IMG/VR virus record: IMGVR_UViG_2737471827_000004
Strand: one strand, 5' to 3'
DNA: 19,919 nucleotides
From: a virus
Taxonomy: Duplodnaviria; Heunggongvirae; Uroviricota; Caudoviricetes
The first letter of the stretch is position 1. Each line of letters opens with the position of its first letter. The position numbers and the translations under genes were made by a program. The notes under the pieces were generated by a model. That model saw only the letters and a list, made by a program, of their open reading frames with translations, had not been told where the DNA came from and did no database searches. This document shows positions 1,284-19,914 of this stretch, one piece after another.

Positions 1284-1368
1284 CCGACCTCATCTATTTG
1301 ATTAACTGTATGCCATCGTGGTGATGGCTTAACAGCTGCCTGCTTAAAATGTTTTGATAAAAAAACAT

Positions 1369-1397
1369 TGACCTGAAAAGTTCATTTTTCTAAACTT
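1369..1397 (+). promoter_or_regulatory. Candidate sigma70 promoter (-35 TTGACC, 17-bp spacer, -10 TAAACT), with an inverted repeat (AATGTTTT..AAAACATT, 1348-1369) overlapping the -35
   Basis: Motif inspection only. Lies upstream of the ydfA-ydfB-ydfC-dicF-dicB-ydfD gene string, on the far side of the repressor gene. Confidence 0.3.
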
Positions 1398-1575
1398 CAT
1401 TCATTCCCTCTCCCCACCCCACAGAATGCAGGGCAATACTTCTAGTTACCAGGCAGTGGTCAGGGGTTAAGTAGCCAGCCCGAGGCGTAAGAACATGACG
1501 GCAGGGTTCAACTTTAATAACTATGCAGCAGGTTTTTGTTCCGCTACCCCGGCGTTAAGGGGAAATGAGGTCAGC

Positions 1576-1731
1576 ATGGATACTATCGATCTTGGCAACA
1601 GCGAATCTCTGGTATGCGGCGTGTTTCCCAACCAGGACGGTACGTTCACCGCGATGACGTATACCAAAAGCAAAACGTTTAAAACCGAAAATGGTGCCCG
1701 TCGCTGGCTGGAAAGAAACTCAGGTGAGTGA
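1576..1731 (+). CDS. ydfA: Small prophage protein YdfA-like (51 aa)
   Basis: Internal ATG of track ORF 1495-1731 (MDTIDLGNSESLVCGVFPNQDG...), GAGG 5 nt upstream. Length and sequence match my recollection of Qin YdfA. Confidence 0.6.
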   Translation: MDTIDLGNSESLVCGVFPNQDGTFTAMTYTKSKTFKTENGARRWLERNSGE

Positions 1732-1732
1732 T

Positions 1733-1861
1733 ATGGATTTCGACACAATCATGGAAAAGGCTTACGAAGAATACTTCGAAGGTCTTGCCGACGGCGAAGA
1801 AGCTCTCAGCTTCAACGAATTTAAACAGGCGCTTTCCAGTTCGGCAAAATCTAACGGCTGA
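1733..1861 (+). CDS. ydfB: Small acidic prophage protein YdfB-like (42 aa)
   Basis: ATG at 1733, one base after the ydfA stop (translationally coupled). Manual translation MDFDTIMEKAYEEYFEGLADGEEALSFNEFKQALSSSAKSNG, stop at 1859-1861. Below the track's length cutoff. Confidence 0.5.
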   Translation: MDFDTIMEKAYEEYFEGLADGEEALSFNEFKQALSSSAKSNG

Positions 1862-1890
1862 TAAGCGAAACAGCACCGCGAGGAATCAGT

Positions 1891-2109
1891 ATGCAGAAAC
1901 GAGAACCCGTCATCATCGCGCCAGACTATACCGATGATGAACTTTATGAGTGGATGCGCCAGAAAATTAATGCAGCGCAGGATCTGAAATGGGCCAATGA
2001 AGCCAGGGCTAAGCAGGCTGAAAATCTGTCCGCTCTGGAGCAGGATATCACCAGGCTGGAAAAAGCAGCGGCATTAAGCATTGCCAGAATGATTACATAC
2101 CCGCGTTAG
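1891..2109 (+). CDS. ydfC: Small prophage protein YdfC-like (72 aa)
   Basis: Track ORF with GAGGA RBS 6 nt upstream; same strand and order as ydfA/ydfB. Confidence 0.6.
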   Translation: MQKREPVIIAPDYTDDELYEWMRQKINAAQDLKWANEARAKQAENLSALEQDITRLEKAAALSIARMITYPR

Positions 2110-2449
2110 TAGCTAATCAACAAAGCTAAGGTTAGTAATTAAGGAGTTCTCCACGGGTGAGGTGGAGTGCGTGCGCCGGACACGGGTGAGCATCCGGCAC
2201 TGACAGTTTACTGAAAGGATATTTCCCTGAAAAGTCAGACCATAACGCGAAAGCGCACGGCGAGGTAGCTGGTTCATAGATAGCCTGTCGTTAAATTTTC
2301 GTCGACCGTGCGCTTCCGGTTGTGGCAACCCGCGAAATGGCGCGGCGGTAAGTATGGCGGGGTTATTCCTTCCCCGTTGAGGACACCGGGTTGTCAGGTT
2401 GACCATACGCTTAAGTGACAACCCCGCTGCAACGCCCTCTGTTATCAAT

Positions 2450-2507
2450 TTTCTGGTGACGTTTGGCGGTATCAGTTTTACTCCGTGACTGCTCTGCCGC
2501 CCTTTTT
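2450..2507 (+). ncRNA. dicF: DicF small regulatory RNA (ftsZ-targeting sRNA of Qin-type prophages)
   Basis: Sequence TTTCTGGTGACGTTTGGCGGTATCAGTTTTACTCCGTGACTGCTCTGCCGCCCTTTTT matches my recollection of DicF. Ends in a GC stem (GGCGG/CCGCC) plus T5 intrinsic terminator. Sits directly upstream of dicB as in K-12. Exact processed ends are not determinable here. Confidence 0.7.
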
Positions 2508-2676
2508 AAAGTGAATTTTGTGATGTGGTGAATGCGGCTGAGCGCACGCGGAACAGTTAAAACCAAAAACAGTGTTATGGGTGGATTCTCTGTATCCGGC
2601 GTTAATTGTTAACTGGTTAACGTCACCTGGAGGCACCAGGCACTGCATCACAAAATTCATTGTTGAGGACGCGATA

Positions 2677-2865
2677 ATGAAAACGTTATTACCAAACGTT
2701 AATACGTCTGAAGGTTGTTTTGAAATTGGTGTCACTATCAGTAACCCAGTATTTACTGAAGATGCCATTAACAAGAGAAAACAAGAACGGGAGCTATTAA
2801 ATAAAATATGCATTGTTTCAATGCTGGCTCGTTTACGTCTGATGCCAAAAGGATGTGCACAATGA
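2677..2865 (+). CDS. dicB: Cell-division inhibitor DicB (62 aa)
   Basis: Internal ATG of track ORF 2572-2865 (MKTLLPNVNTSEGCFEIGVTISNPVF...), GAGGA RBS 8 nt upstream. Sequence and length match DicB as I recall it. Confidence 0.8.
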   Translation: MKTLLPNVNTSEGCFEIGVTISNPVFTEDAINKRKQERELLNKICIVSMLARLRLMPKGCAQ

Positions 2866-3053
2866 ATTCAGCATTTGTGCTTGTTCTGACAGTTTTTCTT
2901 GTTTCCGGAGAGCCAGTTGATATTGCAGTCAGTGTGCACAGGACAATGCAGGAGTGTATGACTGCAGCAACCGAACAGAAAATTCCCGGTAACTGTTACC
3001 CGGTCGATAAAGTTATTCACCAGGATAATAACGAAATCCCGGCAGGTCTTTAA
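2862..3053 (+). CDS. ydfD: YdfD-like small lysis-associated prophage protein (63 aa, N-terminal hydrophobic segment)
   Basis: ATG overlaps the dicB stop (ATGA, 2862-2865). MNSAFVLVLTVFLVSGEPVD...; AAGGA RBS upstream. Confidence 0.7.
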   Translation: MNSAFVLVLTVFLVSGEPVDIAVSVHRTMQECMTAATEQKIPGNCYPVDKVIHQDNNEIPAGL

Positions 3054-3146
3054 AACAGTTCCGTAATAAATATCCGGTTTCATTCTTATATGCCAGCAAT
3101 GGCAGGGATTTGTTCATCCTTAAATCTGTCATGAGGTTAAAACAAA

Positions 3147-5618
3147 ATGAGTAAAGTCTTTATTTGCGCCGCTATTCCTGACGAACTGGCAACAAGGGAA
3201 GAAGGCGCTGTGGCTGTAGCCACAGCCATTGAAGCTGGCGACGAACGCCGTGCTCGAGCAAAATTTCACTGGCAGTTCCTGGAACATTATCCGGCTGCTC
3301 AGGACTGCGCTTATAAATTTATTGTCTGCGAGGATAAACCTGGCATACCCCGCCCTGCCCTCGATTCATGGGATGCTGAATATATGCAGGAAAACCGCTG
3401 GGATGAGGAGTCTGCTTCTTTTGTCCCGGTTGAGACTGAATCCGATCCGATGAACGTCACTTTTGACAAGCTGGCCCCTGAAGTACAGAACGCTGTCATG
3501 GTTAAGTTCGACACATGTGAAAACATCACCGTTGATATGGTTATTAGCGCACAGGAATTGTTGCAGGAAGACATGGCAACATTCGACGGACATATCGTTG
3601 AAGCGTTGATGAAAATGCCAGAAGTTAACGCCATGTATCCGGAGCTTAAGTTGCACGCCATTGGGTGGGTTAAGCATAAATGTATTCCTGGTGCTAAATG
3701 GCCCGAAATTCAGGCAGAGATGCGCATCTGGAAAAAACGTCGCGAAGGTGAACGCAAGGAAACCGGAAAATACACGTCTGTTGTTGATCTCGCCCGCGCC
3801 AGAACCAATCAACAGTACACTGAAAATTCAACAGGAAAAATCAGCCCGGTCATTGCTGCCATTCATCGCGAATACAAGCAGACATGGAAAACACTGGATG
3901 ACGAACTGGCCTACGCTCTCTGGCCTGGTGATGTGGATGCCGGAAACATTGACGGCAGCATCCATCGCTGGGCAAAAAAAGAAGTTATCGACAACGACCG
4001 CGAAGACTGGAAGCGTATCTCGGCATCAATGCGCAAACAGCCTGATGCCCTTCGCTACGACCGCCAGACTATTTTTGGCCTTGTCCGTGAGCGTCCGATC
4101 GACATTCACAAAGATCCCATAGCACTGAACAAATATATCTGCGAATACCTGACGACAAAGGGCGTGTTTGAGAATGAAGAAACAGACCTGGGCACTGTTG
4201 ATGTTCTCCAGTCATCAGAAACACAAACTGATGCAGTGGAAACTGAGGTATCTGATATCCCAAAAAATGAAACCGCGCCGGAAGCTGAACCATCTGTAGA
4301 GCGTGAGGGGCCGTTCTATTTCCTCTTCGCAGATAAGGACGGAGAAAAATACGGTCGCGCAAACAAACTTTCTGGTCTGGATAAGGCACTGGCTGCTGGC
4401 GCCACTGAAATCACAAAAGAAGAATATTTTGCCCGAAAAAATGGCACATACACGGGCTTACCGCAAAATGTAGATACCGCTGAAGATTCAGAACAACCAG
4501 AGCCGATAAAAGTTACCGCTGACGAAGTAAACAAAATTATGCAGGCAGCCAATATCAGCCAGCCTGACGCCGATGAACTGCTTGCAGTATCACGTGGTGA
4601 ATTTGTTGAAGGGATTAGCGACCCGAATGATCCGAAATGGATTAAGGGGATCCAGACCCGCGATTCTGTGAACCAGAACCAGCAAGAAACGGAACAGAAC
4701 GACCAGAAAGCGGAACAAAACAGCCCAAATACGCAACAAAACGAGCCAGAAACGAAACAACCTGAACCAGTAGTGCAACAGGAACCGGAAAAGATCTGCA
4801 CCGCCTGCGGTCAGAGCGGTGGCGGCAACTGCCCTGATTGTGGTGCGGTGATGGGTGACGCAACATACCAGGAAATATTCGATGGAGAGAATCAGCCTGA
4901 AGTTCAGGAAAATGATCCGGAGGAAATGGAAGGCACTGCGCATCAGCACAAGGAGAACACTGGCGGCAATCAGCATCATGCCAGCGATAGTGAAACTGGC
5001 GAGGCGTCAGATCCCTTAATTAAGGCAAACGGTCATCATAATCTCACATCCACCAGCAGAGCGGGGATTCATCTGATGATCGACCTTGAAACCATGGGAA
5101 AAAATCCCGATGCCCCGATTATCTCAATAGGTGCAATATTTTTCGATCCGCAAACCGGAGATATGGGACCGGAATTTAGTAAGACTATCGATCTGGAAAC
5201 TGCTGGCGGAGTCATTGATCGGGACACCATTAAATGGTGGCTTAAACAATCACGCGAAGCGCAATCTGCCATTATGACCGATGAAATCCCGTTAGATGAT
5301 GCACTGTTACAATTGCGGGAATTTATCGACGAAAACTCCGGTGAATTTTTTGTTCATGTCTGGGGAAATGGAGCCAACTTCGACAACACGATTTTGCGCC
5401 GTTCATACGAACGGCAGGAGATCCCCTGCCCGTGGCGTTACTACAACGATCGCGATGTACGCACAATCGTTGAGCTGGGGAAAGCCATAGACTTCGATGC
5501 CAGAACGGCTATTCCATTCGAAGGTGAGCGCCATAATGCACTTGATGACGCCCGTTACCAGGCAAAATACGTTTCAGTTATCTGGCAAAAACTGATCCCG
5601 AGTCAGGCTGATTCTTAA
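3147..5618 (+). CDS. Prophage exonuclease (823 aa): long N-terminal region, acidic Q/E/N/P-rich linker, CxxC-x9-CxxC zinc ribbon, C-terminal DEDDh (DnaQ-like) 3'-5' exonuclease domain
   Basis: One uninterrupted ORF. C-terminal motifs Exo I MIDLETMG (D-x-E), Exo II GNGANFD, Exo III HNALDDARYQA. Zinc ribbon CTACGQSGGGNCPDC at about 4797-4841; low-complexity linker about 4630-4790. Occupies the position of K-12 ydfE, which is broken by IS2 there. Resemblance of the N-terminal part to the exodeoxyribonuclease-VIII-annotated family is from memory only. Confidence 0.75.
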   Translation: MSKVFICAAIPDELATREEGAVAVATAIEAGDERRARAKFHWQFLEHYPAAQDCAYKFIVCEDKPGIPRPALDSWDAEYMQENRWDEESASFVPVETESDPMNVTFDKLAPEVQNAVMVKFDTCENITVDMVISAQELLQEDMATFDGHIVEALMKMPEVNAMYPELKLHAIGWVKHKCIPGAKWPEIQAEMRIWKKRREGERKETGKYTSVVDLARARTNQQYTENSTGKISPVIAAIHREYKQTWKTLDDELAYALWPGDVDAGNIDGSIHRWAKKEVIDNDREDWKRISASMRKQPDALRYDRQTIFGLVRERPIDIHKDPIALNKYICEYLTTKGVFENEETDLGTVDVLQSSETQTDAVETEVSDIPKNETAPEAEPSVEREGPFYFLFADKDGEKYGRANKLSGLDKALAAGATEITKEEYFARKNGTYTGLPQNVDTAEDSEQPEPIKVTADEVNKIMQAANISQPDADELLAVSRGEFVEGISDPNDPKWIKGIQTRDSVNQNQQETEQNDQKAEQNSPNTQQNEPETKQPEPVVQQEPEKICTACGQSGGGNCPDCGAVMGDATYQEIFDGENQPEVQENDPEEMEGTAHQHKENTGGNQHHASDSETGEASDPLIKANGHHNLTSTSRAGIHLMIDLETMGKNPDAPIISIGAIFFDPQTGDMGPEFSKTIDLETAGGVIDRDTIKWWLKQSREAQSAIMTDEIPLDDALLQLREFIDENSGEFFVHVWGNGANFDNTILRRSYERQEIPCPWRYYNDRDVRTIVELGKAIDFDARTAIPFEGERHNALDDARYQAKYVSVIWQKLIPSQADS

Positions 5619-5690
5619 TGTTCAACTGTCGCCGGTTGTGACTGGTATTCTGCAACCGGCGCTCGTCTGATGTAAGAGATAAAGAAATCG

Positions 5691-5942
5691 ATGAGCGAAG
5701 TAATCATGATTGTCTCTCCCGGCAAATGGGTATCCGAAGAGCAGTTAATTGCGCTGAAAGGAATAAAAAAAGGTACGTTAAAAAAGGCCCGGGAAAAATC
5801 GTTTATGGAAGGAAGGGAATATAAGCATGTCGCTCATGACGGTATGCCATGGGATAACAGTCCATGCTTTTACAACCTGGAAGAAATTGATCGCTGGATT
5901 GAGCGCCAGGCATCAGCGAGACCAAGACGTCATCTTACTTGA
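5691..5942 (+). CDS. Excisionase-like small DNA-binding protein (83 aa)
   Basis: Small basic ORF immediately upstream of and co-directional with the integrase. Function inferred from position and size. Confidence 0.5.
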   Translation: MSEVIMIVSPGKWVSEEQLIALKGIKKGTLKKAREKSFMEGREYKHVAHDGMPWDNSPCFYNLEEIDRWIERQASARPRRHLT

Positions 5943-5976
5943 CTAAAAGCCACACTAACTAATGAGAGAAGTTGAA

Positions 5977-7257
5977 ATGAAATATCCGACAGGCGTGGAA
6001 AACCATGGAGGGAAATTACGTATCTGGTTTGTTTATAAAGGCGTAAGAGTCAGGGAAAATCTGGGGGTTCCTGACACAGCAAAAAACAGGCGCGTTGCAG
6101 GTGAACTACGCGCCTCTGTTTGTTACGCAATAAAAACTGGTGTTTTCGACTATGCAAAACAGTTTCCCTCCTCACGCAATCTGGAAAAATTTGGTGAGGC
6201 CCGACAAGATTTAACCATAAAAGAACTGGCTGAAAAATTTCTGGCACTGAAAGAAACTGAAGTCGCCAAAACATCACTCAACACATACCGTGCCGTCATC
6301 AAAAATATCCTGAGCATAATCGGTGAAAAAAATCTTGCCTCATCGATTAATAAAGAAAAATTACTGGAGGTTCGTAAAGAGTTACTGACTGGATACCAGA
6401 TCCCCAAAAGTAACTATATTGTTACACAACCAGGGAGATCGGCTGTAACTGTAAATAATTACATGACAAATCTTAACGCCGTGTTCCAGTTTGGTGTTGA
6501 TAACGGTTACCTGGCAGATAATCCGTTTAAGGGGATCTCGCCATTAAAGGAATCAAGAACCATTCCGGATCCTCTTTCGCGGGAAGAATTTATCCGTCTT
6601 ATCGATGCGTGCAGAAATCAGCAAGCAAAAAATTTATGGTGTGTTTCTGTTTATACTGGCGTTCGCCCTGGTGAGCTGTGTGCACTTGGATGGGAGGACA
6701 TAGATCTGAAAAATGGAACAATGATGATCAGGAGAAATTTAGCAAAAGACCGTTTCACGGTACCAAAAACACAGGCGGGAACCAATCGGGTCATTCATCT
6801 TATTAAGCCAGCAATCGACGCTCTCCGGAGTCAGATGACATTAACGAGACTGAGCAAAGAGCATATCATTGATGTTCACCTCAGAGAGTATGGCAGAACA
6901 GAAAAACATAAATGCACCTTTGTTTTTCAACCTGAAGTGTCAGCGAGAGTAAAAAATTATGGTGACCATTTTACCGTTGACTCAATAAGGCAGATGTGGG
7001 ACGCAGCGATAAAACGTGCCGGACTCCGCCATCGAAAATCATATCAGTCGAGACATACTTATGCCTGCTGGTCGCTGACAGCTGGTGCTAACCCGGCATT
7101 TATAGCAAACCAGATGGGCCATGCAGATGCGCAAATGGTATTTCAGGTATACGGAAAATGGATGTCTGAAAACAATAATGCACAGGTAGCTTTGTTAAAT
7201 ACACAGTTAAGCGAGTTTGCCCCAACCATGCCCCATAACGAAGCAATGAAAAATTAA
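5977..7257 (+). CDS. intQ: Tyrosine site-specific integrase (lambda family), intact
   Basis: Track ORF 5962-7257; ATG at 5977 (MKYPTGVENHGG...) is preferred because GAGAGAAG lies 5 nt upstream. C-terminal catalytic region has RHTYA and HADAQMVFQVYGKW (H-x-x-R and Tyr nucleophile context). Sits next to rspB where the K-12 intQ pseudogene lies; the symbol is given by position only. Confidence 0.8.
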   Translation: MKYPTGVENHGGKLRIWFVYKGVRVRENLGVPDTAKNRRVAGELRASVCYAIKTGVFDYAKQFPSSRNLEKFGEARQDLTIKELAEKFLALKETEVAKTSLNTYRAVIKNILSIIGEKNLASSINKEKLLEVRKELLTGYQIPKSNYIVTQPGRSAVTVNNYMTNLNAVFQFGVDNGYLADNPFKGISPLKESRTIPDPLSREEFIRLIDACRNQQAKNLWCVSVYTGVRPGELCALGWEDIDLKNGTMMIRRNLAKDRFTVPKTQAGTNRVIHLIKPAIDALRSQMTLTRLSKEHIIDVHLREYGRTEKHKCTFVFQPEVSARVKNYGDHFTVDSIRQMWDAAIKRAGLRHRKSYQSRHTYACWSLTAGANPAFIANQMGHADAQMVFQVYGKWMSENNNAQVALLNTQLSEFAPTMPHNEAMKN

Positions 7258-7444
7258 TTTAATATTTATCAAATAGTTGACACGTATGACTCTTGAAATC
7301 CATAAATTCAAGCGCAGTGCCCAGCCATCCCGATACTGCTGCTTTCACCAAATCCTTAGTGCTTCTTTCGTGTTTTTCTATTGTCATAATGGTTATCTCT
7401 AAAAAAGAGGTAAGATGCGTACTACTTACTCGCCGTTATTGGTA
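7258..7444. other. Probable prophage-chromosome junction (att region) between the integrase 3' end and the rspB 3' end
   Basis: Non-coding, AT-rich, between convergent int and rspB. The att core cannot be defined without the other prophage end. Confidence 0.3.
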
Positions 7445-8464
7445 TTATTCAGAAAAAGTGAGTAAGACTTTGCAGCAATGTTTTTGATCCTGTTCAAATA
7501 AACTAATGGCATCAGCAACATGCTGGAAATCAAACGTATGGGTAATTAATTTTTCTGGTTTAATTAACCCTTTACTTAACCAGTCGATAACAACCGGAAA
7601 TTTATTTGCATTTAAGCGTGAAGAGAAAATAGAGAGTTCTTTTCCGGTAATTCCTTGCTGAATCACTTCAGACGGTTCACTGGAGAAGCCCATCAATACA
7701 ATACGTGCCGCTGGAGAAGCCAGCGTTACGGCCTCTTTCAGGATAGAAGGATGACAAGCCGCATCGATAATTAATGTCGGCTTGATGCCTTTTTCAGCGA
7801 AAATCTCGCCAAGCGGTGTCTGGCTGTTATTAATCGCCCAGTCTGCCCCGCTCTCTTTCGCTTTTTCCAGTCGTTCATCAATGCGATCGGCAACAATCAC
7901 ATTTTTAACGTTATAGACGCCTTTTAATACCTGAACGATCGTCAGGCCGATTGGACCGGCACCATAAACCAGAACGGTATCATTTTCAGTCGGTTGACCA
8001 TGACCGGTAACGTTAGCCGCAATGGTAAAAGGTTCGATCATCACCGCATATTGATCGGCCACTGCTTCAGGAATTTTCCACGCATTTTTTGCCGGAACCA
8101 CGGCATATTCACTGAAACCACCGTCAGCGTGCACACCTAATACAGCAAGTGTCGTACAAACGTTCGGCTTACCTATAGAGCACGGATAGCAATGCCCACA
8201 GCTGACCACCGGATCGACAGCAACGCGTTCACCGACTCTGGCGCTTTCCACACCTTCACCCACCGCATCAATGACGCCAAAGAATTCATGACCAATGACG
8301 CGCGGATATTTCGCAAAAGGATTATGCCCACGGTAAATATGGCTATCTGAACCACAAATTCCGGCAAGTTTCACTTTTACTCGTACTTCACCCGCTGACG
8401 GGGTGGGTATTTCACGTTCGATAATCGACAGTTGATTCGGTTTTTCAATTAAAATGCTTTTCAT
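7445..8464 (-). CDS. rspB: Starvation-sensing protein RspB (Zn-dependent alcohol-dehydrogenase family oxidoreductase)
   Basis: Start moved to ATG 8464 (MKSILIEKPNQL...), AAGGAG RBS 7 nt upstream. GICGSDSH zinc-ADH signature and Rossmann motif (LVYGAGPIG). Confidence 0.9.
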   Translation of the reverse strand: MKSILIEKPNQLSIIEREIPTPSAGEVRVKVKLAGICGSDSHIYRGHNPFAKYPRVIGHEFFGVIDAVGEGVESARVGERVAVDPVVSCGHCYPCSIGKPNVCTTLAVLGVHADGGFSEYAVVPAKNAWKIPEAVADQYAVMIEPFTIAANVTGHGQPTENDTVLVYGAGPIGLTIVQVLKGVYNVKNVIVADRIDERLEKAKESGADWAINNSQTPLGEIFAEKGIKPTLIIDAACHPSILKEAVTLASPAARIVLMGFSSEPSEVIQQGITGKELSIFSSRLNANKFPVVIDWLSKGLIKPEKLITHTFDFQHVADAISLFEQDQKHCCKVLLTFSE

Positions 8465-8475
8465 TACCTTACTCC

Positions 8476-9690
8476 TTACCAGTTCCACAGCGTGCCATCT
8501 TCCAGACGTGCGACTGGCAGATAAGCAGGTTCATAGGGATATTTCGCCGCCAGCTTTTCATCGAATTCGATGCCAAGACCCGGTTTGTCTCCCGGATGCA
8601 TATAGCCGTTATCGAAAGTCCAGTTGTGCGGGAAGACTTCGAGCATTTGTTCGGAATAACCCATGTACTCCTGGACACCGAAATTGGGGACCCACAGATC
8701 AAAGTGCAGCGCCGCAGCCATGCAGACTGGTGACAAATCGGAAGGACCGTGTGAGCCAGTACGTACCTGATACAGCGAAGCAAAATCGGCAATCCGGCGC
8801 ATACCGGTAATTCCGCCTGCATGGGTCAGCGTGGTGCGGATATAATCGATGAGTTGCTCTTCAATCAGTTGTTTGCAGTCCCAGATGCTGTTGAAGACTT
8901 CACCCACTGCGATGGGTGTGACGGTATGTTGGCGAATGAGACGGAAGCATTCCTGGTTTTCCGCAGGCGTCGGGTCTTCCATCCAGAACATGCGATAATC
9001 TTCAATGCTTTTACCAAAGCGCGCCGCTTCAATAGGCGTTAAGCGATGGTGCATGTCATGCAGCAAATGTTCATTAAAACCAAACTTGTTACGTACCGCG
9101 TCAAACAATTTCGGCATGAAATCGAGGTATTTCTCCGTCGACCACAGCTGCTCTTCCGGCCACTGTCCTTTGGTTGCGGGTTCATAAGCCAGACCTTTAC
9201 CTTTCGACATGCCGTAGGTGGTTTTCATACCAGGGATTCCGCACTGCACGCGGATGGCTTTGAATCCCAGCTCCTGATGACGGGCATAATCATCCAGAGC
9301 TTCATCAATACTGTGACCGGTGGTATGGCAATAAACCATCACCCCTTCACGAGACGCGCCGCCGAGTAACTGGTAAAGCGGCATGTTGGCAGCTTTGGCT
9401 TTAATATCCCACAGCGCCATATCAACCGCTGAAATGGCCGACATCGTAACCGGACCGCGACGCCAGTAAGCACCTTTATAGAAAAACTGCCAGATATCTT
9501 CGATACGGTGCGCATCGCGACCAATAAGCTGCGGACAAAGGTGATCCTGCAAATAAGAGGCCACGGAAAGCTCACGTCCATTGAGGGTGGCATCCCCAAG
9601 GCCCGTAATACCGTCCTCAGTGGTGATTTTTAATGTGACGAAATTACGCCCCGGACAGGTAACAAAAACTTCAGCCTTTACGATCTTCAT
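8476..9690 (-). CDS. rspA: Starvation-sensing protein RspA (enolase-superfamily mannonate dehydratase-like)
   Basis: Start at ATG 9690 ([14 protein letters not shown]...), AAGGAA RBS upstream; 404 aa. The rspB RBS lies within the rspA 3' end, so the two form an operon. Confidence 0.9.
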
Positions 9691-10732: not shown

Positions 10733-11293
10733 ATGCCAAGCGCCCACAGTGTTAAGCTACGCCCGCTGGAGCGTGAAGATTTACGCTATGTACATCAACT
10801 CGACAATAACGCCAGTGTGATGCGTTACTGGTTTGAGGAACCCTACGAAGCCTTTGTTGAACTCTCTGATCTGTATGATAAGCATATTCACGATCAGAGC
10901 GAACGGCGCTTTGTGGTGGAATGTGACGGCGAAAAAGCCGGTCTGGTGGAGCTGGTGGAAATTAACCATGTACATCGCCGGGCAGAATTTCAGATAATTA
11001 TCTCCCCGGAGTATCAGGGGAAAGGTCTGGCAACCCGTGCCGCCAAATTAGCAATGGACTATGGCTTTACCGTTCTCAATCTCTATAAGCTGTATCTGAT
11101 CGTTGATAAAGAGAATGAAAAAGCGATTCACATTTACCGCAAGCTTGGCTTTTCGGTTGAAGGTGAATTGATGCACGAGTTCTTTATTAATGGTCAATAT
11201 CGTAATGCCATTCGCATGTGTATATTCCAGCATCAGTATCTGGCAGAGCACAAAACACCGGGTCAGACTCTCCTGAAGCCGACCGCACAATAG
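10733..11293 (+). CDS. speG: Spermidine N1-acetyltransferase SpeG (GNAT family)
   Basis: 186 aa; sequence recognised ([41 protein letters not shown]...). Confidence 0.9.
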
Positions 11294-12617: not shown

Positions 12618-14027
12618 ATGTCCAAAAATGACCGAATGGTGGGCATCAGCCGCAGAACACTCGTTAAATCAACCGCGATAGGTTCTCTGGCGCTGGCTGC
12701 AGGCGGTTTTTCTTTACCGTTCACCCTGCGCAGTGCAGCGGCAGCAGTACAACAGGCCAGCGAAAAAGTGATCTGGGGTGCCTGTTCCGTCAACTGTGGT
12801 AGCCGCTGTGCACTTCGTCTACATGTTAAAGATAATGAAGTCACCTGGGTGGAAACTGACAACACCGGCAGCGACGAGTATGGCAATCATCAAGTACGCG
12901 CCTGTTTGCGTGGTCGATCCATCCGCCGGCGTATTAATCATCCCGATCGCTTGAATTACCCAATGAAACGCGTGGGTACACGCGGTGAAGGCAAATTCGA
13001 ACGGATTAGCTGGGATGAAGCCCTGGATACTATCGCCAGTAGCCTGAAAAAAACCGTCGAACAATATGGCAATGAGGCTGTATATATTCAGTACTCTTCG
13101 GGGATTGTTGGCGGCAATATGACCCGCTCTTCGCCATCAGCCTCGGCGGTCAAACGCCTGATGAACTGCTACGGCGGTTCACTCAATCAGTATGGCTCCT
13201 ACAGCACCGCGCAAATTTCCTGTGCCATGCCCTACACCTACGGCAGTAATGATGGCAACAGCACCACGGATATTGAAAACAGCAAGCTGGTCGTGATGTT
13301 TGGTAACAACCCGGCAGAAACCCGCATGAGCGGCGGTGGCATCACTTATCTTCTTGAAAAAGCGCGCGAGAAATCGAACGCCAAAATGATTGTTATCGAT
13401 CCGCGATATACCGATACGGCTGCTGGTCGTGAAGATGAATGGCTCCCTATTCGCCCGGGCACCGATGCCGCGCTGGTTGCGGGTATTGCCTGGGTATTGA
13501 TTAACGAAAATCTCGTTGATCAACCTTTTCTCGATAAATACTGCGTCGGCTATGACGAAAAAACCTTACCCGCAGATGCACCCAAAAATGGTCACTATAA
13601 AGCCTATATTCTTGGTGAAGGTGATGATAACACAGCGAAAACGCCGCAGTGGGCTTCGCAAATTACCGGTATCCCGGTAGACCGTATCATCAAACTGGCG
13701 CGTGAAATTGGCACAGCAAAACCCGCTTATATCTGCCAGGGCTGGGGGCCGCAACGCCAGGCAAACGGCGAACTGACTGCACGCGCTATTGCTATGTTAC
13801 CTATTTTGACGGGCAATGTCGGCATCAGCGGCGGAAATAGTGGCGCGCGTGAATCGACCTATACCATTACCATAGAACGCCTGCCGGTGCTGGATAATCC
13901 GGTCAAAACGTCAATCTCCTGCTTCAGCTGGACAGATGCTATCGATCATGGTCCGCAAATGACGGCAATCCGCGACGGCGTCCGCGGCAAAGATAAACTG
14001 GATGTGCCCATTAAGTTCATCTGGAAC
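12618..14027 (+). pseudogene. ynfE: ynfE 5' fragment (Tat-exported Mo-bisMGD reductase catalytic subunit, DmsA paralog), codons 1-470; interrupted by the insertion
   Basis: Twin-arginine signal (SRRTLVK) and N-terminal Cys cluster (CSVNCGSRCALR). Native-looking sequence ends at ...IKFIWN (14027). The frame then runs 16 codons into foreign DNA (FKDLKRTLSRPEVLH) to a stop at 14073-14075. Confidence 0.85.
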
Positions 14028-14268
14028 TTCAAGGACTTGAAGCGGACCCTTAGTAGGCCTGAGGTCCTGCATTGAGTCAAGACCTTGTGTCATTCTTTGT
14101 GCCAGACTTGTGTCATTAGACGGGATGTCTAGACGGCTGGTCAGGACCCTCCGGTGGCCTTGGTATGGACTTGAGGCGGGACTATGGGGGAAGTCTGCTG
14201 GCTTAATGTATTAGATGGTCATTCACATTTTTCTGTCAGAAACCATCGGTCCCACTGTGAGTCCAAAC

Positions 14269-14424
14269 CTAAGGACCTAGAAGTCCACCCACAGCCTTAG
14301 ACAGAGTGTCGAACACATCCACACCGAGTCGACCAGAGAGGACCATGTAGAGACCCACAGAGAGGAACACGAGTTTATAGACCAGAGTCAGGAGGGACTT
14401 CAGGTCTGCGGAAGTCATAGACAT
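14269..14424 (-). CDS. 51-aa single-pass membrane protein (holin-like or small membrane toxin-like), unassigned
   Basis: ATG at 14424 with AAGGAGG 5 nt upstream. MSMTSADLKSLLTLVYKLVFLSVGLYMVLSGRLGVDVFDTLSKAVGGLLGP has one roughly 21-residue hydrophobic helix. Last gene of the cassette. Confidence 0.5.
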   Translation of the reverse strand: MSMTSADLKSLLTLVYKLVFLSVGLYMVLSGRLGVDVFDTLSKAVGGLLGP

Positions 14425-14496
14425 TTGGCCCTCCTTATCTTGTATACTACCATACCAGAAATAAGGCCCAGACCCGAAGGTCCAGACCATAGTTAG

Positions 14497-15483
14497 TTAG
14501 TTGGTCTCAGTAAAGCTCAGGCGTTTGACTACAGGCAGGACAGCAGTAGCACTACCAGTACCCATCTTGATTGTCGTAGCAGCTTCAGCGACCACGAAGA
14601 CCTTGCCGAGGATTTCTAGGTCGTGAGACTGAGAGTCGCCATCTCTGGATAAGACCACGGTAATGTTCTCACCATCATGACGGAAGCAGCTGAAGCTCAG
14701 GGCCGTAAAACGCTTAGCCATCATGAACACACCACGGTCCTCACCGTTGTAATACGCGATGTCGGTACCCAGCATATCCACGATAGCGTCTTCGCCACCG
14801 AAGCCCTGCTTAGCAGCCAGACGGGAGAGAGCCTTGAGGTGTGACTCATGGGCGATAATGCCGTAGTCAGAAACCTCAGTACCGAAAGAAGACTCGGTGT
14901 TCTCATACAGGGCATCCATGATAGCGTCAGCCTTAGCGGTCAGGCTACCAGTCAGGACCGGAAGCTCTACAGTCTTCAACAGCTTGGAGGATTCCAGTAC
15001 ATCGACCATGCGACTATTGATGGTACGGACCACGTTATCGCAGATGTTCAGAGCGTCCTGCTGGAGCGTCCCCTGAGTGAAACCAGTGGAAGACTTAGCG
15101 TCCCACAGCTTGGTTTGATGTGATACGAGGATAGCCTGTTCAATCGGCTCCACGGTGATTTCAGTGCCGGACGGAGCGGTCACGACTTCAGGTCGCTTGC
15201 CACCACGGACAGGGACCAGCACAGAGCGGTCAGCCAGAGTGTGAGCAATGATTGGAGTCGGTAAGCTGTTACGGGTCGGCAGGACTTCTACAGGGAACGG
15301 GATGTTATCTTGAGCGTCTTTAAGCACACCATTGAGCATCGTCTTAACCAGCTTAGCCAGCTCAAGGGCGTAGACCTGAGGGTCTGCGTTAGTTGGCAAA
15401 CCTTCGTTAATCTGAATGTTGTCGGTGTCGGTGATACGTACTGGCTCAATGCCGAACTGGAAAGCGTCTTTAGTCATAGTCAT
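14497..15483 (-). CDS. 328-aa hypothetical protein, unassigned
   Basis: Long ORF with AAGGAGA RBS 9 nt upstream. Codon usage rich in GCT/GGT/CGT/AAG/GAC, as in highly expressed coliphage genes. No catalytic motif recognised and no Walker A. Confidence 0.6.
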   Translation of the reverse strand: MTMTKDAFQFGIEPVRITDTDNIQINEGLPTNADPQVYALELAKLVKTMLNGVLKDAQDNIPFPVEVLPTRNSLPTPIIAHTLADRSVLVPVRGGKRPEVVTAPSGTEITVEPIEQAILVSHQTKLWDAKSSTGFTQGTLQQDALNICDNVVRTINSRMVDVLESSKLLKTVELPVLTGSLTAKADAIMDALYENTESSFGTEVSDYGIIAHESHLKALSRLAAKQGFGGEDAIVDMLGTDIAYYNGEDRGVFMMAKRFTALSFSCFRHDGENITVVLSRDGDSQSHDLEILGKVFVVAEAATTIKMGTGSATAVLPVVKRLSFTETN

Positions 15484-15566
15484 GATAATTAATCTCCTTG
15501 AGTCAAATACTTGAAGTCCCTAACGGTAAGTCAGGGACCGTGTGTTCTTAGATGAGGGTCGCTTGC

Positions 15567-16058
15567 TTACAAGCAGTCCATCCAGTTAGCGCCACTATCG
15601 AGGTCAGCCATAATTGAAGCCTTGGAACGACCAGCGGAATGGGTAGCACTGCGGAGGTTCTCACCATAGGTCCGGCGTTCAGCTTTGACCTGTTCACGGC
15701 GCTGTAGCTCTTTCTGCCACTCTGCATCGGTCATGTTCTCTTCACGCATACGCTCAGCCTGAAGTCGTTGCTCTTTAGCGATACGCTCAGCCTCAGCTCG
15801 TTTGTTAAGCTGGCGGCGACCATAGGCGGTCATCAGGTCATTACTGAAGAAGTTACCAATGGTCACGCCAGCTTCAGCAAGAGCTTCCAGTAACTCCATT
15901 GCTTCGCGGCTGGTGGATGGCAAGCCTGACAGATACCCCGGAATGAGGGTCTTGATAGCGAGGGACAGCGGATAGGACTGATCGTCCAGACTCACAGTAT
16001 TCTCGTAGAGATTGATGTCGGTGACTGACAGCTTCCAGTTGTTGTTGTTGAATAACAT
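15567..16058 (-). CDS. 163-aa hypothetical protein with a highly charged predicted coiled-coil segment
   Basis: AGAGGAG RBS 7-8 nt upstream. Charged segment RRQLNKRAEAERIAKEQRLQAERMREENMTDAEWQKELQRREQVKAERR. Confidence 0.55.
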   Translation of the reverse strand: MLFNNNNWKLSVTDINLYENTVSLDDQSYPLSLAIKTLIPGYLSGLPSTSREAMELLEALAEAGVTIGNFFSNDLMTAYGRRQLNKRAEAERIAKEQRLQAERMREENMTDAEWQKELQRREQVKAERRTYGENLRSATHSAGRSKASIMADLDSGANWMDCL

Positions 16059-16200
16059 AAGTTGGTACTCCTCTTGAGAAGGTGAGAACTATCGGTATCG
16101 CAGACACAGTTATGCCTACGGGTCTCCCCGCATCGGTCATTCTCAAAAGGTGTTTAAATTAAGGTATTGAGTAGGTGAGCTGCTAACGGTTAGGAGACAG

Positions 16201-16413
16201 CTAGCTTACTAGCGACAGTTTCATAGCGACCAGTTGCGCTATCAGCTCGTCTCGGGATTGGTGCTGGCGGGTCTCATCTTCCGGGTCTAGACCAAGCTCC
16301 TTCAGGAGGAATTCAGTCCGATAGCCACGGTAACGGAGAGTCATGCGACCCTCAGGTGTGCGCGGGTCAACCATAGGTCTTTGGGAGACCATAGGTCTTT
16401 GGTTAGTCATCAT
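16201..16413 (-). CDS. 70-aa hypothetical protein with a tandemly duplicated N-terminal heptapeptide
   Basis: Start 2 nt after the stop of the upstream gene. Contains the 18-bp tandem repeat at 16371-16406 (encodes QRPMVS-QRPMVD). Confidence 0.45.
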   Translation of the reverse strand: MMTNQRPMVSQRPMVDPRTPEGRMTLRYRGYRTEFLLKELGLDPEDETRQHQSRDELIAQLVAMKLSLVS

Positions 16414-16415
16414 TG

Positions 16416-16676
16416 TTAGAAGTCCTCGTTAGACCAATCATCCACGTCAAATTCACTGGTGATAGGCGCTTGGAAGTCAGGTAGACCCTCTGGTATATCT
16501 AGCGGCAGTCGCTCGTCGACTCTCAGTGCCATCTCTTCGTATATATGCCGAAGCAGAGAAGTCAGTAAGATATGGTCCGCAGGATGCTCATGGTCGTATC
16601 TCTCAATGAAACATATGGTTGTCGCTATTGACTTCATAATCAGTTCATCAGTAAGTCGGTTGGAATCCATAGTCAT
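16416..16676 (-). CDS. 86-aa strongly acidic protein (about 20 Asp/Glu vs 5 Lys/Arg), unassigned
   Basis: Start 1 nt after the stop of the Rha-like gene (TAA-G-ATG). MTMDSNRLTDELIMKSIATTICFIERYDHEHPADHILLTSLLRHIYEEMALRVDERLPLDIPEGLPDFQAPITSEFDVDDWSNEDF. Confidence 0.55.
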   Translation of the reverse strand: MTMDSNRLTDELIMKSIATTICFIERYDHEHPADHILLTSLLRHIYEEMALRVDERLPLDIPEGLPDFQAPITSEFDVDDWSNEDF

Positions 16677-16677
16677 C

Positions 16678-17388
16678 TTAGAGTCCCTTCTGCTTGCCGG
16701 ATTTGGCTTGCTTCAGGAGGTATTCCTGCTTCTGCTGGTCGGTGCCAGTGAATGCAATAAGGATGCCTTTCATCTTGTCAATCGTCTCAGGTCTACCGAA
16801 GACCTCCAGTCCCTTAGCGTTGAAGCGAAAGTTATAACCACCTGCTGAGAACTTCTGGTCTGACGGCTTAATGATACGGAAGCAGTCGGAATACTTTGGA
16901 TTTACAGACCACTCGTTACTGATTGGATTCTTACGAAAGAGACCACGATGCTGAAGAAGTGCGGTCATTAGCTTCTGAGCAGGTAGACCATAGGTTTTGC
17001 AGTAGTCACCCCAAGTCACGCCTCGACGGTTAGCGGACTGAATTGCTGCTCGCTTCTTCTGGTCTTCCAGTAACTGCTTGTCCTTCTCAATTCGTCGGAT
17101 GTATTCAAGGACTTTGCGACGCACAGCTTTAGACTCACGCATACCGACCAATAGTAGTTGGTCTCCGTTAAGGATAGTGTGAGAGGATTTACGTCCAGAA
17201 GCGCCCGTGTCTAATAAAAGGAAATTTTCCTCTTTTAAATCCAGCTCATCCTTCACGCGATTGATGAAGTCCTTATTACTGACGGGATTCTCCCCGGCCT
17301 CTTCACGGGCAGGATTGATAACCTTGGTCAGGAACTCATAGGAAGACAGAGAGAACTCATCGTTAAAGATGACTACTTGTTGAGACAT
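16678..17388 (-). CDS. Rha/antirepressor-like phage regulatory protein (236 aa); C-terminal half unassigned
   Basis: Track ORF 16678-17601 has an implausible N-terminal extension. ATG at 17388 (MSQQVVIFNDEF...) has a perfect AAGGAG 8 nt upstream. The N-terminal region (LLLDTGASGRKSSHTILNGDQLLLVGMRESKAVRRKVLEYI) resembles the N-terminal DNA-binding domain of Rha/Ant-type phage proteins; this is a family-level impression. Confidence 0.5.
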   Translation of the reverse strand: MSQQVVIFNDEFSLSSYEFLTKVINPAREEAGENPVSNKDFINRVKDELDLKEENFLLLDTGASGRKSSHTILNGDQLLLVGMRESKAVRRKVLEYIRRIEKDKQLLEDQKKRAAIQSANRRGVTWGDYCKTYGLPAQKLMTALLQHRGLFRKNPISNEWSVNPKYSDCFRIIKPSDQKFSAGGYNFRFNAKGLEVFGRPETIDKMKGILIAFTGTDQQKQEYLLKQAKSGKQKGL

Positions 17389-17957
17389 ATCGTTGTACTC
17401 CTTTTTGTTATGCCTCCTGAAGTCACACCCTGAGAGCCTACTCAAGCCCCCAACGATAGGGAGACTCACAGGCAACAGGAGACATACAGAAAGACTTGAG
17501 GTGATGATGAGGTCGTGTGAAGACCAGAGATGATGGTGGTGGTGGTGACTGCTCAGTTTTGAGCGCGTTAAGTTCTTCGACCATAGAGACGAAGGTTGCA
17601 AGACCGCATGTCAGGACGAGCTGTAAGGACTCCAGATGGTGAGCGGTGATAGACTTAAGCCAATGTAGTGAGTAGACGAGCTACTAACTGAGATGACTGA
17701 AGAACGCTAACGAGCTGGAGGTCGATACACGAGGTCTGACAGAGGCGGTCTTCCTACCAGTGATAGTTAAGCCCTACCACTGGTCATACATACCCAACCT
17801 CAAGCAACGACCCAATGTATACAGGGTCCCGATGCTTTGAGCTGGAGACTGACGGAGCTATCGTCGACCCCATGGTTGAGGAAGACACATAGAAGGAATG
17901 AGGTCTGACTTAAGTCTGGACTATAGGTCTTATATTAATCTTCATAAGAAGATAATA

Positions 17958-18008
17958 ATTAACTTAGAGTCATAACTTCAGTCTTACTTAGAGTCTTAAC
18001 TTTAAGTC
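17958..18008. repeat. Array of four imperfect ~11-bp direct repeats (ACTTAGAGTC / ACTTCAGTC / ACTTAGAGTC / ACTTTAAGTC) in an AT-rich stretch
   Basis: Read directly from the sequence. Lies in the 767-bp non-coding region between the HNH gene and the Rha-like gene. A palindrome GACTTAAGTC sits at about 17909-17918, and a C7-T-C6 tract at 18024-18037. Confidence 0.6.
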
Positions 18009-18155
18009 AGCATCTATGGTCTGCCCCCCCTCCCCCCATTGCTGGAAGGAGAGGCGGTAGTGTCTGCCATTTTCCCTATACTGATAATTTAGCACCCTCC
18101 TCTACAGACCAGACGCACCAAGGCCTACAGAGGCGCTCTAAGTTAGCAACCGTCA

Positions 18156-18890
18156 TCAAACCACCACAGACTCTTCGTCGATGTAGTGCTTCTTGTTCAG
18201 CTTCTTAAAGTAGAGACGCCCAGTTTTAGGCTCAATGTAGACTTTCAGTCCATCATGCGTCTTAGCGTAGCCGGGTAAACGTCGCTTCCTTGGTTTATAC
18301 CCTTCAGGCTTGGACACCTCGTAGCGCTCGTCAGCTCGCTTCTGGTCTGCCTCTGTCCAGTCGGTCCACCCATCGTAGGCGAATTCACCGTGTAGCTTCT
18401 GACGCTGTTCCTGTAGCCAGACCATAAGCTCCCTGACCTCATAAGAGAGTCTCGCCCGGACCTTGCCGTCTATCTTAATACGCGCTCTGTAGCGACCCTC
18501 AGCTTTTACAAAGTCAATCCCTTTCGGCAAATAGTTCTGAAGTTTGCCTCCAAGGTTGTCTCTGTTCCACTGGTTCTGCTGTGGTGTAACTAGGCGCAGG
18601 TTGTCAGGATGGTCATTGAGTCGGTTACCGTCGATATGGTCAACGAACATTCCCTCAGGGATGTGACCCTTACACAGGCTGTAGATGACTCTGGAGCGAC
18701 GATAGCGCTTACCCAGTACAGAGACAGAGGCATAGCCATTTTGATGCACATAGAAGCTAACAGGCTCTCCTGTGGCGCGTTTAGATTGGCCGTAAGGTGT
18801 CTTGACTCGGAGTAGCTGAGGAATGGTTGGGTCAAAGGTGTAATGGTCGTACAGTTTGATTCGGTCTAGTGGCTTGGCTGGTCGGCCCAT
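18156..18890 (-). CDS. HNH endonuclease (244 aa), homing-endonuclease-like
   Basis: HNH motif VDHIDGNRLNDHPDNLRLVTPQQNQWN, flanked by basic beta-rich segments (GYASVSVLGKRYRRSRVIY; GRYRARIKIDGKVRARLSY) as in the DNA-binding modules of phage HNH homing endonucleases. Start ATG at 18890 is only 7 bp from resumed ynfE sequence. Confidence 0.8.
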   Translation of the reverse strand: MGRPAKPLDRIKLYDHYTFDPTIPQLLRVKTPYGQSKRATGEPVSFYVHQNGYASVSVLGKRYRRSRVIYSLCKGHIPEGMFVDHIDGNRLNDHPDNLRLVTPQQNQWNRDNLGGKLQNYLPKGIDFVKAEGRYRARIKIDGKVRARLSYEVRELMVWLQEQRQKLHGEFAYDGWTDWTEADQKRADERYEVSKPEGYKPRKRRLPGYAKTHDGLKVYIEPKTGRLYFKKLNKKHYIDEESVVV

Positions 18891-18897
18891 GATGGAT

Positions 18898-19914
18898 ACC
18901 CTCGTTAATCAGCATTCTGACATCAACAAAACGCATGAAATTCTGCAGGACGAATCGAAATGCGAAATGATTGTGATCATCGAAAACTTTATGACCTCAT
19001 CGGCAAAATATGCCGACATTCTGCTGCCAGACCTGATGACCGTTGAGCAGGAAGATATTATTCCTAACGACTACGCCGGTAACATGGGATATCTCATTTT
19101 CCTCCAGCCTGTCACCAGCGAAAAATTCGAACGCAAACCGATTTACTGGATCCTGAGTGAAGTCGCGAAACGTCTTGGACCTGACGTCTATCAAAAGTTC
19201 ACAGAAGGTCGCACGCAGGAACAATGGTTACAACATCTGTACGCCAAAATGCTTGCCAAAGATCCGGCGTTACCGTCTTACGACGAACTGAAAAAAATGG
19301 GTATCTATAAGCGTAAAGATCCCAATGGCCATTTTGTCGCCTACAAAGCATTTCGTGACGACCCCGAGGCAAATCCACTTAAAACGCCTTCCGGTAAGAT
19401 TGAAATTTATTCCAGCAGGCTGGCGGAAATTGCCCGTACCTGGGAACTGGAAAAAGATGAAGTGATAAGCCCATTGCCAGTTTATGCCTCAACCTTTGAA
19501 GGCTGGAACTCCCCTGAACGTAGAACCTTCCCACTGCAACTGTTTGGTTTCCATTACAAATCCCGTACTCACTCGACCTACGGCAATATTGATCTCCTGA
19601 AGGCTGCCTGCCGTCAGGAGGTGTGGATCAACCCTATAGATGCGCAGAAACGTGGGATTGCCAACGGCGATATGGTGCGGGTGTTTAACCATCGTGGCGA
19701 AGTTCGGCTACCAGCCAAAGTAACACCACGTATTCTCCCTGGAGTTAGCGCTATGGGCCAGGGAGCCTGGCACGAGGCCAATATGTCTGGCGATAAAATC
19801 GACCATGGCGGCTGTGTGAATACGCTAACCACTCTGCGCCCTTCACCACTGGCGAAGGGAAACCCGCAGCACACTAATCTGGTCGAGATCGAAAAAATAG
19901 TAAGCGTAAACTGA
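18898..19914 (+). pseudogene. ynfE: ynfE 3' fragment (C-terminal 338 codons plus stop)
   Basis: In-frame continuation TLVNQHSDINKTHEILQDESKCEMIVIIENFMTSSAKYADILLPD... to the stop at 19912-19914. The MIRSSGLAGRPMMD prefix of the track ORF is read-through of junction and insert sequence. Confidence 0.85.

Follow-up and report, generated by a model that had tools for sequence, protein, structure and literature searches.

A probable satellite of T7-like phages in ynfE of Escherichia coli, with a predicted HK97-fold capsid gene and its partner

The stretch analysed, 19,919 nt of the viral record IMGVR_UViG_2737471827_000004 (referred to as the window), was E. coli chromosome comprising, in order, the end of a lambdoid prophage, rspBA, ynfABCD, speG, and a split ynfE. 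Comparison with the uninterrupted ynfE of strain K-12 delimited an insert of 4.87 kb at nt 14029–18900, with genes all on the minus strand (Table 1). The subject of this report is the element to which the insert belongs, and in particular two of its genes, encoding proteins of 328 and 163 aa, which an earlier note written from the sequence alone had singled out as well supported and unassignable.

Both open reading frames (ORFs) were found where that note had placed them and had the strong ribosome binding sites (RBSs) it described, AAGGAG 8 nt before the ATG of the 328-aa gene and GAGGAG for the 163-aa gene. Full-length homologues of both proteins were present in many Enterobacterales, and the ratio of nonsynonymous to synonymous substitution rates (dN/dS) against 7 close relatives was low, 0.07–0.12 for the 328-aa gene and 0.12–0.36 for the 163-aa gene; thus, both are real genes and not chance ORFs. 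The coliphage-like codon bias was also borne out, as the relative synonymous codon usage of the insert genes correlated with that of the genes of Kayfunavirus Ro45lw at r = 0.86 versus 0.42 with that of the flanking host genes.

The 328-aa protein had no match in Pfam, NCBIfam, or PADLOC, and its best PHROG match was not significant (E 0.039), in agreement with the absence of a catalytic signature reported before. No match was obtained by tblastn against 50,697 GenBank phage records or by a sequence search of PDB. An exhaustive profile search collected 66 relatives down to about 20% identity, to which a further profile-based homologue search added few; the protein and 41 of its relatives had no Pfam, NCBIfam, or significant PHROG match, which places them outside the curated capsid families. 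The AlphaFold2 model built from a 41-sequence alignment had a mean predicted local distance difference test (pLDDT) score of 80.3 and a predicted template modelling (pTM) score of 0.75, and possessed the N-arm, E-loop, spine helix, and P and A domains that define the HK97 fold. A first model, which drew on 12 close homologues, was of low quality (pLDDT 46) and was later replaced; this earlier low-confidence model pointed to the same capsid fold. Matches in BFVD were capsid proteins throughout, and the fold was structurally near that of encapsulins. One relative bore a C-terminal Big_2 immunoglobulin (Ig) domain, and Ig domains are frequent on virion surface proteins. The model, the BFVD matches, and the Ig-domain relative therefore predict that the 328-aa protein is a major capsid protein with the HK97 fold and that its lineage is unrepresented among sequenced phages. 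Kinship with gp10, the capsid protein of T7-like phages, was considered and rejected (hhalign probability 0.1%).

The 163-aa protein consisted of a small N-terminal domain, a long charged stretch with an internal duplication (DNA repeat D3), and a short tail; the highly charged segment remarked on earlier was visible in the sequence as a charged helical stretch at about residues 80–135. By itself, the protein had no significant family match in Pfam, PHROGs, PADLOC, or NCBIfam and no tblastn match in the 50,697 phage records. In all of the 20+ loci, over capsid identities ranging from 94% to 24%, the gene directly upstream of that for the capsid encoded a homologous protein of 127–165 aa. The distant positional homologues (capsid identity 24–41%) were bona fide DUF6971 proteins (PF22318, E-values down to 6e-41), a close homologue of the 163-aa protein reached E 0.15 against the DUF6971 profile, and hhalign of the window's 163-aa family versus DUF6971 members gave a probability of 97% (E 6e-11). 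The joint family profile matched PDB 5EUR, annotated as 'uncharacterized protein', at E 1e-32. DUF6971 and 5EUR are homologous to the 163-aa family but have no assigned function, and the window protein has a longer C-terminal tail; a literature search on 5EUR/SF216 and DUF6971 in open-access papers and preprints returned nothing relevant. Because of its position before the capsid gene, as is usual for scaffolds, its strict co-inheritance with that gene, and its charged composition, the 163-aa protein is most likely a dedicated capsid assembly partner, a putative scaffolding protein of the DUF6971 family. Thus, "unassignable" held for plain sequence searches, but the profile search and structure prediction assign the 328-aa protein, and profile-profile comparison relates the 163-aa protein to DUF6971.

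Promoters of the T7 type were then compared, taking as the Kayfunavirus-type consensus the 23-nt CTAAACTATCACTATAGGGAGA, co-oriented with the genes; roughly a dozen sites in Ro45lw fit it, without exception on the plus strand. In two related islands, L004 and L009 (L numbers denote the loci compared), the promoters read CCTAAACTATCACTATAGGGAGACC, an exact match to phi10 of Ro45lw from CTAAAC onward, and several island promoters equalled Ro45lw promoters across the whole promoter. The sequence CACTATAGG occurred in 26 gene-oriented copies inside 13 islands (0.35 expected), with no antisense copy and a single copy in 154 kb of flanking DNA, and 20 of the 23 IMG/VR matches of the 17-mer CTATCACTATAGGGAGA were in contigs of about 39–41 kb, the size of a T7-like genome. 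In the island region (window nt 13900–19000), no sigma-70-like promoter was found, versus 4.6 ± 1.7 in shuffled sequences, which is consistent with dependence on a phage polymerase. Several islands carried tandem promoters of two specificities, AACTATCAC and the T3-like ACCCTCAC; since the specificity regions differ, this suggests that one island can respond to the RNA polymerases of two helper phage genera. The tandem promoters, with specificity regions ACCCTCACTATAGGG and AACTATCACTATAGGG, were about 27 nt apart and were located at nt 7418–7470 and 8023 in L008, 7469–7520 and 8021–8075 in L010, and 7480–7535 and 8050–8105 in L014.

The window itself retained two such sites, P1 and P2. Derivation of P1 from the promoter of another phage was rejected; because TATCAGTATAGGGA gave scattered single matches in viral contigs, P1 was taken as a mutated copy. 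The Ro45lw site sharing 15 nt with P2 conforms to the same promoter consensus, although unannotated in the record, and consensus promoters were present at the P2-homologous position in related islands.

Further links to T7-like phages were found. Downstream of the capsid gene, a homologue of the T7-like concatemer junction consisted of about 50 nt corresponding to the pre-repeat (nt 14216–14265) and a terminal-repeat-like part (about nt 14029–14215) ending at the att core. Nt 14094–14265 aligned to Ro45lw nt 39555–39721 with a score of 91 versus 25.5 ± 2.9 for shuffled sequences (z = 22), the 190-bp terminal repeat of Ro45lw beginning at nt 39604, and 7 related islands likewise have the segment conserved downstream of their capsid genes (z 10–22). 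The predicted HNH endonuclease shared 47–50% identity (tblastn) with proteins of Ro45lw, PE3-1, pO91, and other Kayfunavirus records; these, its closest relatives, are encoded at the right genome end, in the interval between phiOR and the gene for the terminase large subunit. Nt 17985–18039 were homologous to the post-phiOR region of Ro45lw (Smith-Waterman score 43 versus 21.3 ± 3.2, shuffle maximum 34), and the region downstream of P1 to which they belong is a putative promoter-dependent replication origin and packaging-recognition region, as judged from its sequence. In the metagenomic locus L019 (nt 971–8533), a distant DUF6971-capsid pair directly followed genes for T7 gp16-like and gp15-like internal virion proteins and an HNH fragment; L019 could belong to a phage with a capsid of this lineage or to a larger satellite equipped with core proteins as well. 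In L004 (nt 10984–11223) and L010 (nt 10996–11235), the capsid gene is followed by a 79-aa gene that had 43% identity, over an 86-column tblastn alignment, to Ro45lw nt 17765–18013, the region of T7 gene 7, and is another gene common to islands and T7-like phages.

The related islands shared one gene order: integrase, a variable slot (HNH or DUF4145-type), a noncoding control region with promoters, an Ant/KilAC-like or other regulator, a protein of about 63–70 aa, the DUF6971 protein, the capsid protein, 1–2 small genes, and a conserved noncoding junction-like end. This order recurred in E. coli, Shigella, Citrobacter, Leclercia, Enterobacter, Buttiauxella, and others. The island L001, in strain GPEC620-622, encodes a 528-aa integrase, is about 6.7 kb long without its insertion sequence (IS) IS100, and splits ynfE precisely between 11-bp repeats CATCTGGAACT, the att core of the window being repeated at the integrase-side junction. 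Other members occupied other sites, among them one neighbouring a tRNA gene, and a 6,661-nt contig held a whole element between 16-bp att repeats. The Logan contigs of about 6.6 kb were considered as excised or linear forms and rejected as such, because their att repeats and short host flanks mark them as integrated copies. Sequence related to window nt 14200–17700 was carried by 312 of the 5,426 complete E. coli genomes (about 6%), in all cases in the chromosome. Some genomes had two copies, such as Shigella flexneri SFBU1023 with L009 and L012. The gene ynfE has already been listed as a target of integrative elements, without functional analysis (Mageeney et al. 2020, PMC7192596).

Among the seven island ORFs, searches of Pfam, PHROG, NCBIfam, and PADLOC together with clustering gave no match to portal, terminase, connector, tail, protease, or replication proteins, and no AlpA-type regulator, primase/replicase, or psu, sid, or delta domain, so that the element is not a classical phage-inducible chromosomal island (PICI) or P4-like element. 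As expected of a satellite, it is without a complete complement of virion and replication genes and possesses signals for the exploitation of a helper; an integrase and att sites were present in the family and in L001, while the window copy has neither integrase nor attR. Since the island combines origin-type and junction signals with no replication genes, we propose that the element is probably a satellite of T7-like (Kayfunavirus-type) virulent phages, with the 328-aa and 163-aa proteins as its capsid module. T7 origins consist of phage promoters followed by AT-rich DNA. For packaging by T7, a plasmid requires no more than a T7 origin and the concatemer junction (Chung & Hinkle 1990, as cited in PMC9860248).

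From the computed capsid fold, gene pairing, promoters, junction homology, HNH and phiOR homology, and gene content, we infer a cycle of induction, replication, small-capsid formation, packaging, and transfer. Upon infection, the single-subunit RNA polymerase of the helper would transcribe the element from the T7-type promoters. The promoters and the AT-rich region would serve as a T7-style origin, primed by the helper polymerase and copied by the helper replisome, the element having no replication protein of its own. The 163-aa and 328-aa proteins would then build satellite-specific capsids on the portal and core of the helper. These capsids would probably be small, about T=3–4 for a genome of about 6.9 kb; by rough volume scaling from a T=7 capsid with about 40 kb, a T=3 shell would hold about 11 kb and a T=4 shell about 17 kb, which leads us to expect a small T number. 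Helper terminase would recognise and cut the mimic of the concatemer junction and terminal repeat, and helper tails would finish the particles. In the packaged DNA, the integrase gene would occupy the leading end, and the integrase would insert the element at the att site of a new host. The helper would probably suffer interference. Of the roles suggested in the earlier note, a structural or scaffold-like function agrees with these results, an effect like abortive infection, through interference with the helper, may arise as a by-product, and for an anti-defence effector no evidence was found.

The window copy, otherwise identical to L001, had lost about 1.8 kb (L001 nt 15670–17472), and with it a consensus-type phage promoter, the gene for the 528-aa integrase, attR, and some 19 bp of ynfE; because ynfE sequence was lost as well, the gene is no longer restorable by excision. 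A 14-bp direct repeat flanking the integrase segment was considered and rejected, since closer inspection showed a deletion at a 5-bp microhomology. With the integrase, attR, and one promoter lost and the two remaining promoters mutated, the window copy is probably an immobile remnant, and perhaps silent, with both capsid ORFs intact. Sister copies also showed decay: in L001, IS100 lies between the control region and the HNH gene (L001 nt 12947–14901, corresponding to window nt ~18146), in L002 an IS3 element is located at the integrase side, and many copies of the island family are decaying.

Several observations weigh against a satellite of T7-like phages. No portal gene is present and the capsid protein shows no detectable sequence relation to the T7-like one (hhalign 0.1%), so its fit to the helper portal and core is hypothetical. 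The putative scaffold role of the 163-aa protein derives from position, co-conservation, and composition, its solved relative 5EUR being annotated as 'uncharacterized'. In the window, the integrase is deleted and both promoters are off consensus, P1 with two core mismatches in a variant that does not recur in viral contigs and P2 with a 1-nt insertion. The distant islands L020, L022, and L024 had no T7-type promoter under the patterns used, and no GenBank phage was matched by the whole island in blastn, the DNA homologies surfacing only in targeted local alignment.

Other explanations for the gene pair were weighed against this proposal. Promoters for a helper polymerase would also suit a defence island triggered by phage, in which the two proteins are expressed on infection as decoys that poison capsid assembly of the helper and packaging is unneeded. 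We regard this as unlikely, since a role without packaging and transfer does not readily account for the conserved homologue of the junction and terminal repeat, the integrase, and the att sites, and since decoy co-assembly is less likely for a capsid protein unrelated in sequence to that of the helper; interference and transfer are, however, not mutually exclusive. An encapsulin-like nanocompartment, with the 328-aa protein forming a shell around the 163-aa protein as cargo for a cellular or element function without DNA packaging, is suggested by the fold similarity noted above. No encapsulin Pfam family was matched despite this similarity, the 163-aa protein has no enzymatic domain, and the phage-polymerase promoters, the lack of host promoters, the terminal-repeat mimic, and the Ig-domain-decorated relative point to a virion, which leaves the nanocompartment the least probable of the readings.

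The earlier note had allowed that the pair might simply be a captured phage fragment. The fold and the gene order are indeed phage-like, but nothing in the 50,697 phage records matched. In another reading, the island would be a decayed temperate T7-like phage or other prophage and the pair its functionless leftover head genes; the HNH, phiOR, and terminal-repeat segments do derive from T7-like phages, and the window copy is decaying, with its integrase deleted and promoters mutated, as is the sister copy with IS100. Yet the compact 6–7 kb arrangement, its att sites intact, is found again in different genera and at different integration sites (ynfE, the tRNA gene, and others), both genes of the capsid module are under purifying selection, related sequence is present in 312 of 5,426 complete E. 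coli genomes, and no phage in GenBank or IMG/VR was found to combine the capsid module with portal and terminase. A decayed phage is thus quite improbable, and a conserved, self-contained element of about 6–7 kb with its own att sites, T7-type promoters, and a junction mimic is not a random phage fragment.

In open-access papers and preprints, no satellite of T7-like phages was found described. In kind, the element would be a phage satellite; what sets it apart from others is the class of helper, the wiring to the polymerase and junction of that helper, and a private two-gene capsid module. The gene set of capsid-forming PICIs (cf-PICIs) additionally includes portal, head-tail connectors, small terminase, and protease or scaffold; cf-PICIs are roughly double the size, and from their temperate helpers they take tails only. 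The Ccm protein of SaPIbov5 is a homologue of the helper capsid protein and co-assembles with it. Compared with cf-PICIs (e.g. EcCI2; bioRxiv 10.1101/2022.09.08.507074; PDB 9gyi), the present element encodes just the capsid protein and the scaffold-like one, is devoid of portal and terminase, and bears the promoter type of virulent T7-like phages together with a mimic of their terminal repeat. Unlike SaPIbov5 Ccm (PDB 7rwz), the 328-aa protein shows no sequence relation to the T7-like capsid protein and has a partner protein of its own. PICMIs (minimalist islands of the phage-inducible chromosomal type) and PICI-like elements (PLEs) resemble it as small chromosomal islands dependent on virulent helpers, a dependence inferred here, and PICMIs are likewise minimalist in size. 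According to PMC10803314 and PMC10945586, PICMIs have no capsid-remodelling genes and the PLE remodels the helper coat by an external scaffold; neither is known to be linked to T7-like phages or to promoters for a helper RNA polymerase. Like the T7 transducing plasmids, the island has promoter-type origin candidates and a homologue of the junction and terminal repeat, but those plasmids are laboratory constructs in normal T7 heads, whereas the island is an integrative element found in nature and encodes a capsid protein and its partner. The 'mini' HK97-fold entities (bioRxiv 10.1101/2025.06.18.659913) similarly hold integrase, regulators, scaffold, and capsid protein in less than 10 kb without portal or tail; they are human-gut contigs of about 8.9 kb with RepA or a helicase and an encapsulin-type capsid recognisable by Pfam, for which no helper or T7 link is described, whereas replication genes are absent from the present element and Pfam does not recognise its capsid protein.

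Whether these islands form an undescribed satellite family on virulent T7-like phages, T7 relatives included, using helper promoters for induction and replication, a junction mimic for packaging, and a private HK97-fold and DUF6971 miniature capsid on a borrowed portal and tail, some with tandem promoters of two specificities, is in our estimation evenly balanced. Few phages have been studied as thoroughly as T7 and its relatives, which are in wide use in biotechnology and in therapy cocktails. If the proposal is true, the islands would offer a tractable E. coli system for capsid-size determination, portal/scaffold compatibility, and satellite-helper conflict in a virulent podophage, as well as a route for specialised gene transfer by T7-like phages. 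It would also give DUF6971 and PDB 5EUR a role and account for an island to which about 6% of complete E. coli genomes have related sequence, and a 6.7-kb self-encapsidating cassette driven by a T7-type polymerase would be attractive as an engineering tool.

Table 1. Features of the ynfE island in the window
Feature	Position (nt)	Strand	Basis or remark
att core CATCTGGAACT	14018–14028		Left ynfE/island junction, island DNA from 14029; comparison with K-12 ynfE and L001
T7-like concatemer-junction homologue, putative packaging/cleavage signal	14029–14265	-	Local alignment to Ro45lw
51-aa hydrophobic protein	14269–14424	-	ORF list; strong GGAGG RBS; place matches small gene before Ro45lw terminal repeat
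G+C-rich stem-loop, CTTCGG loop and T-run, terminator-like	14465–14488	-	Terminator scan; 9 nt past capsid stop
328 aa, predicted HK97-fold major capsid protein of the element	14497–15483	-	Predicted structure, BFVD
163 aa, DUF6971-related, putative scaffolding/assembly partner	15567–16058	-	Position, co-conservation, hhalign, dN/dS
70-aa conserved small protein, family c3	16201–16413	-	ORF clustering, tblastn; in most related islands compared
86-aa acidic protein	16416–16676	-	ORF list; singleton in ORF clustering, specific to this island lineage
236-aa Ant/KilAC-type (anti-repressor-like) regulator	16678–17388	-	phrog_10324, 3e-30; RefSeq CDS of 711 nt
P2, T7-type promoter-like site GCTTAACTATCACTGGTAGGAAGACCG	17746–17772	-	First 15 nt equal a Ro45lw consensus site, then extra G
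Region downstream of P1: G-rich tract, two 17-nt direct repeats ACTTAGAGTCWTAACTT (D16), AT-rich stretch	17928–18039	-	
P1, degenerate Kayfunavirus-type promoter GCTAAATTATCAGTATAGGGAAAAT	18069–18093	-	Two conserved-core mismatches; phiOR position just after HNH gene
HNH_3 endonuclease, 244 aa	18156–18890	-	PF13392, 5e-15; tblastn to Kayfunavirus HNH genes
Deletion junction, microhomology ATACC	18896–18900		blastn against L001, junction sequences

As for the remaining features, homologues of the 51-aa hydrophobic protein occurred at the equivalent position in L004, L009, and L010; a relationship to gp50 of Ro45lw was rejected, as no alignment was obtained. The stem-loop after the capsid gene is placed like T-phi after T7 gene 10 and like the annotated terminator after the capsid gene of Ro45lw, but terminator-like sites overall were not above chance, so that it is weak evidence. 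At the N-terminus of the 70-aa protein (window nt 16365–16413), a peptide is tandemly repeated (QRPMVSQRPMVD); the underlying DNA is a direct repeat, and its motif GACCATAGGTCT recurs elsewhere in the island. A mechanically called 307-aa ORF with a TTG start and a His-run (nt 16678–17601) over-extends the Ant-like gene, the real start being the ATG at nt 17388 with a conserved leader and RBS. The lambdoid prophage end (window nt 3147–7257), encoding an 823-aa exonuclease, an excisionase, and a 431-aa integrase, adjoins rspB and has no relation to the ynfE island. The slot between the integrase and the first promoter varied among islands, being occupied by HNH_3 in the window (nt 18156–18890), by a 218-aa protein in L008 (nt 6768–7424), and by DUF4145 in L173 (nt 1765–2418); this variable slot beside the integrase resembles the accessory/defence hotspots of other satellites.

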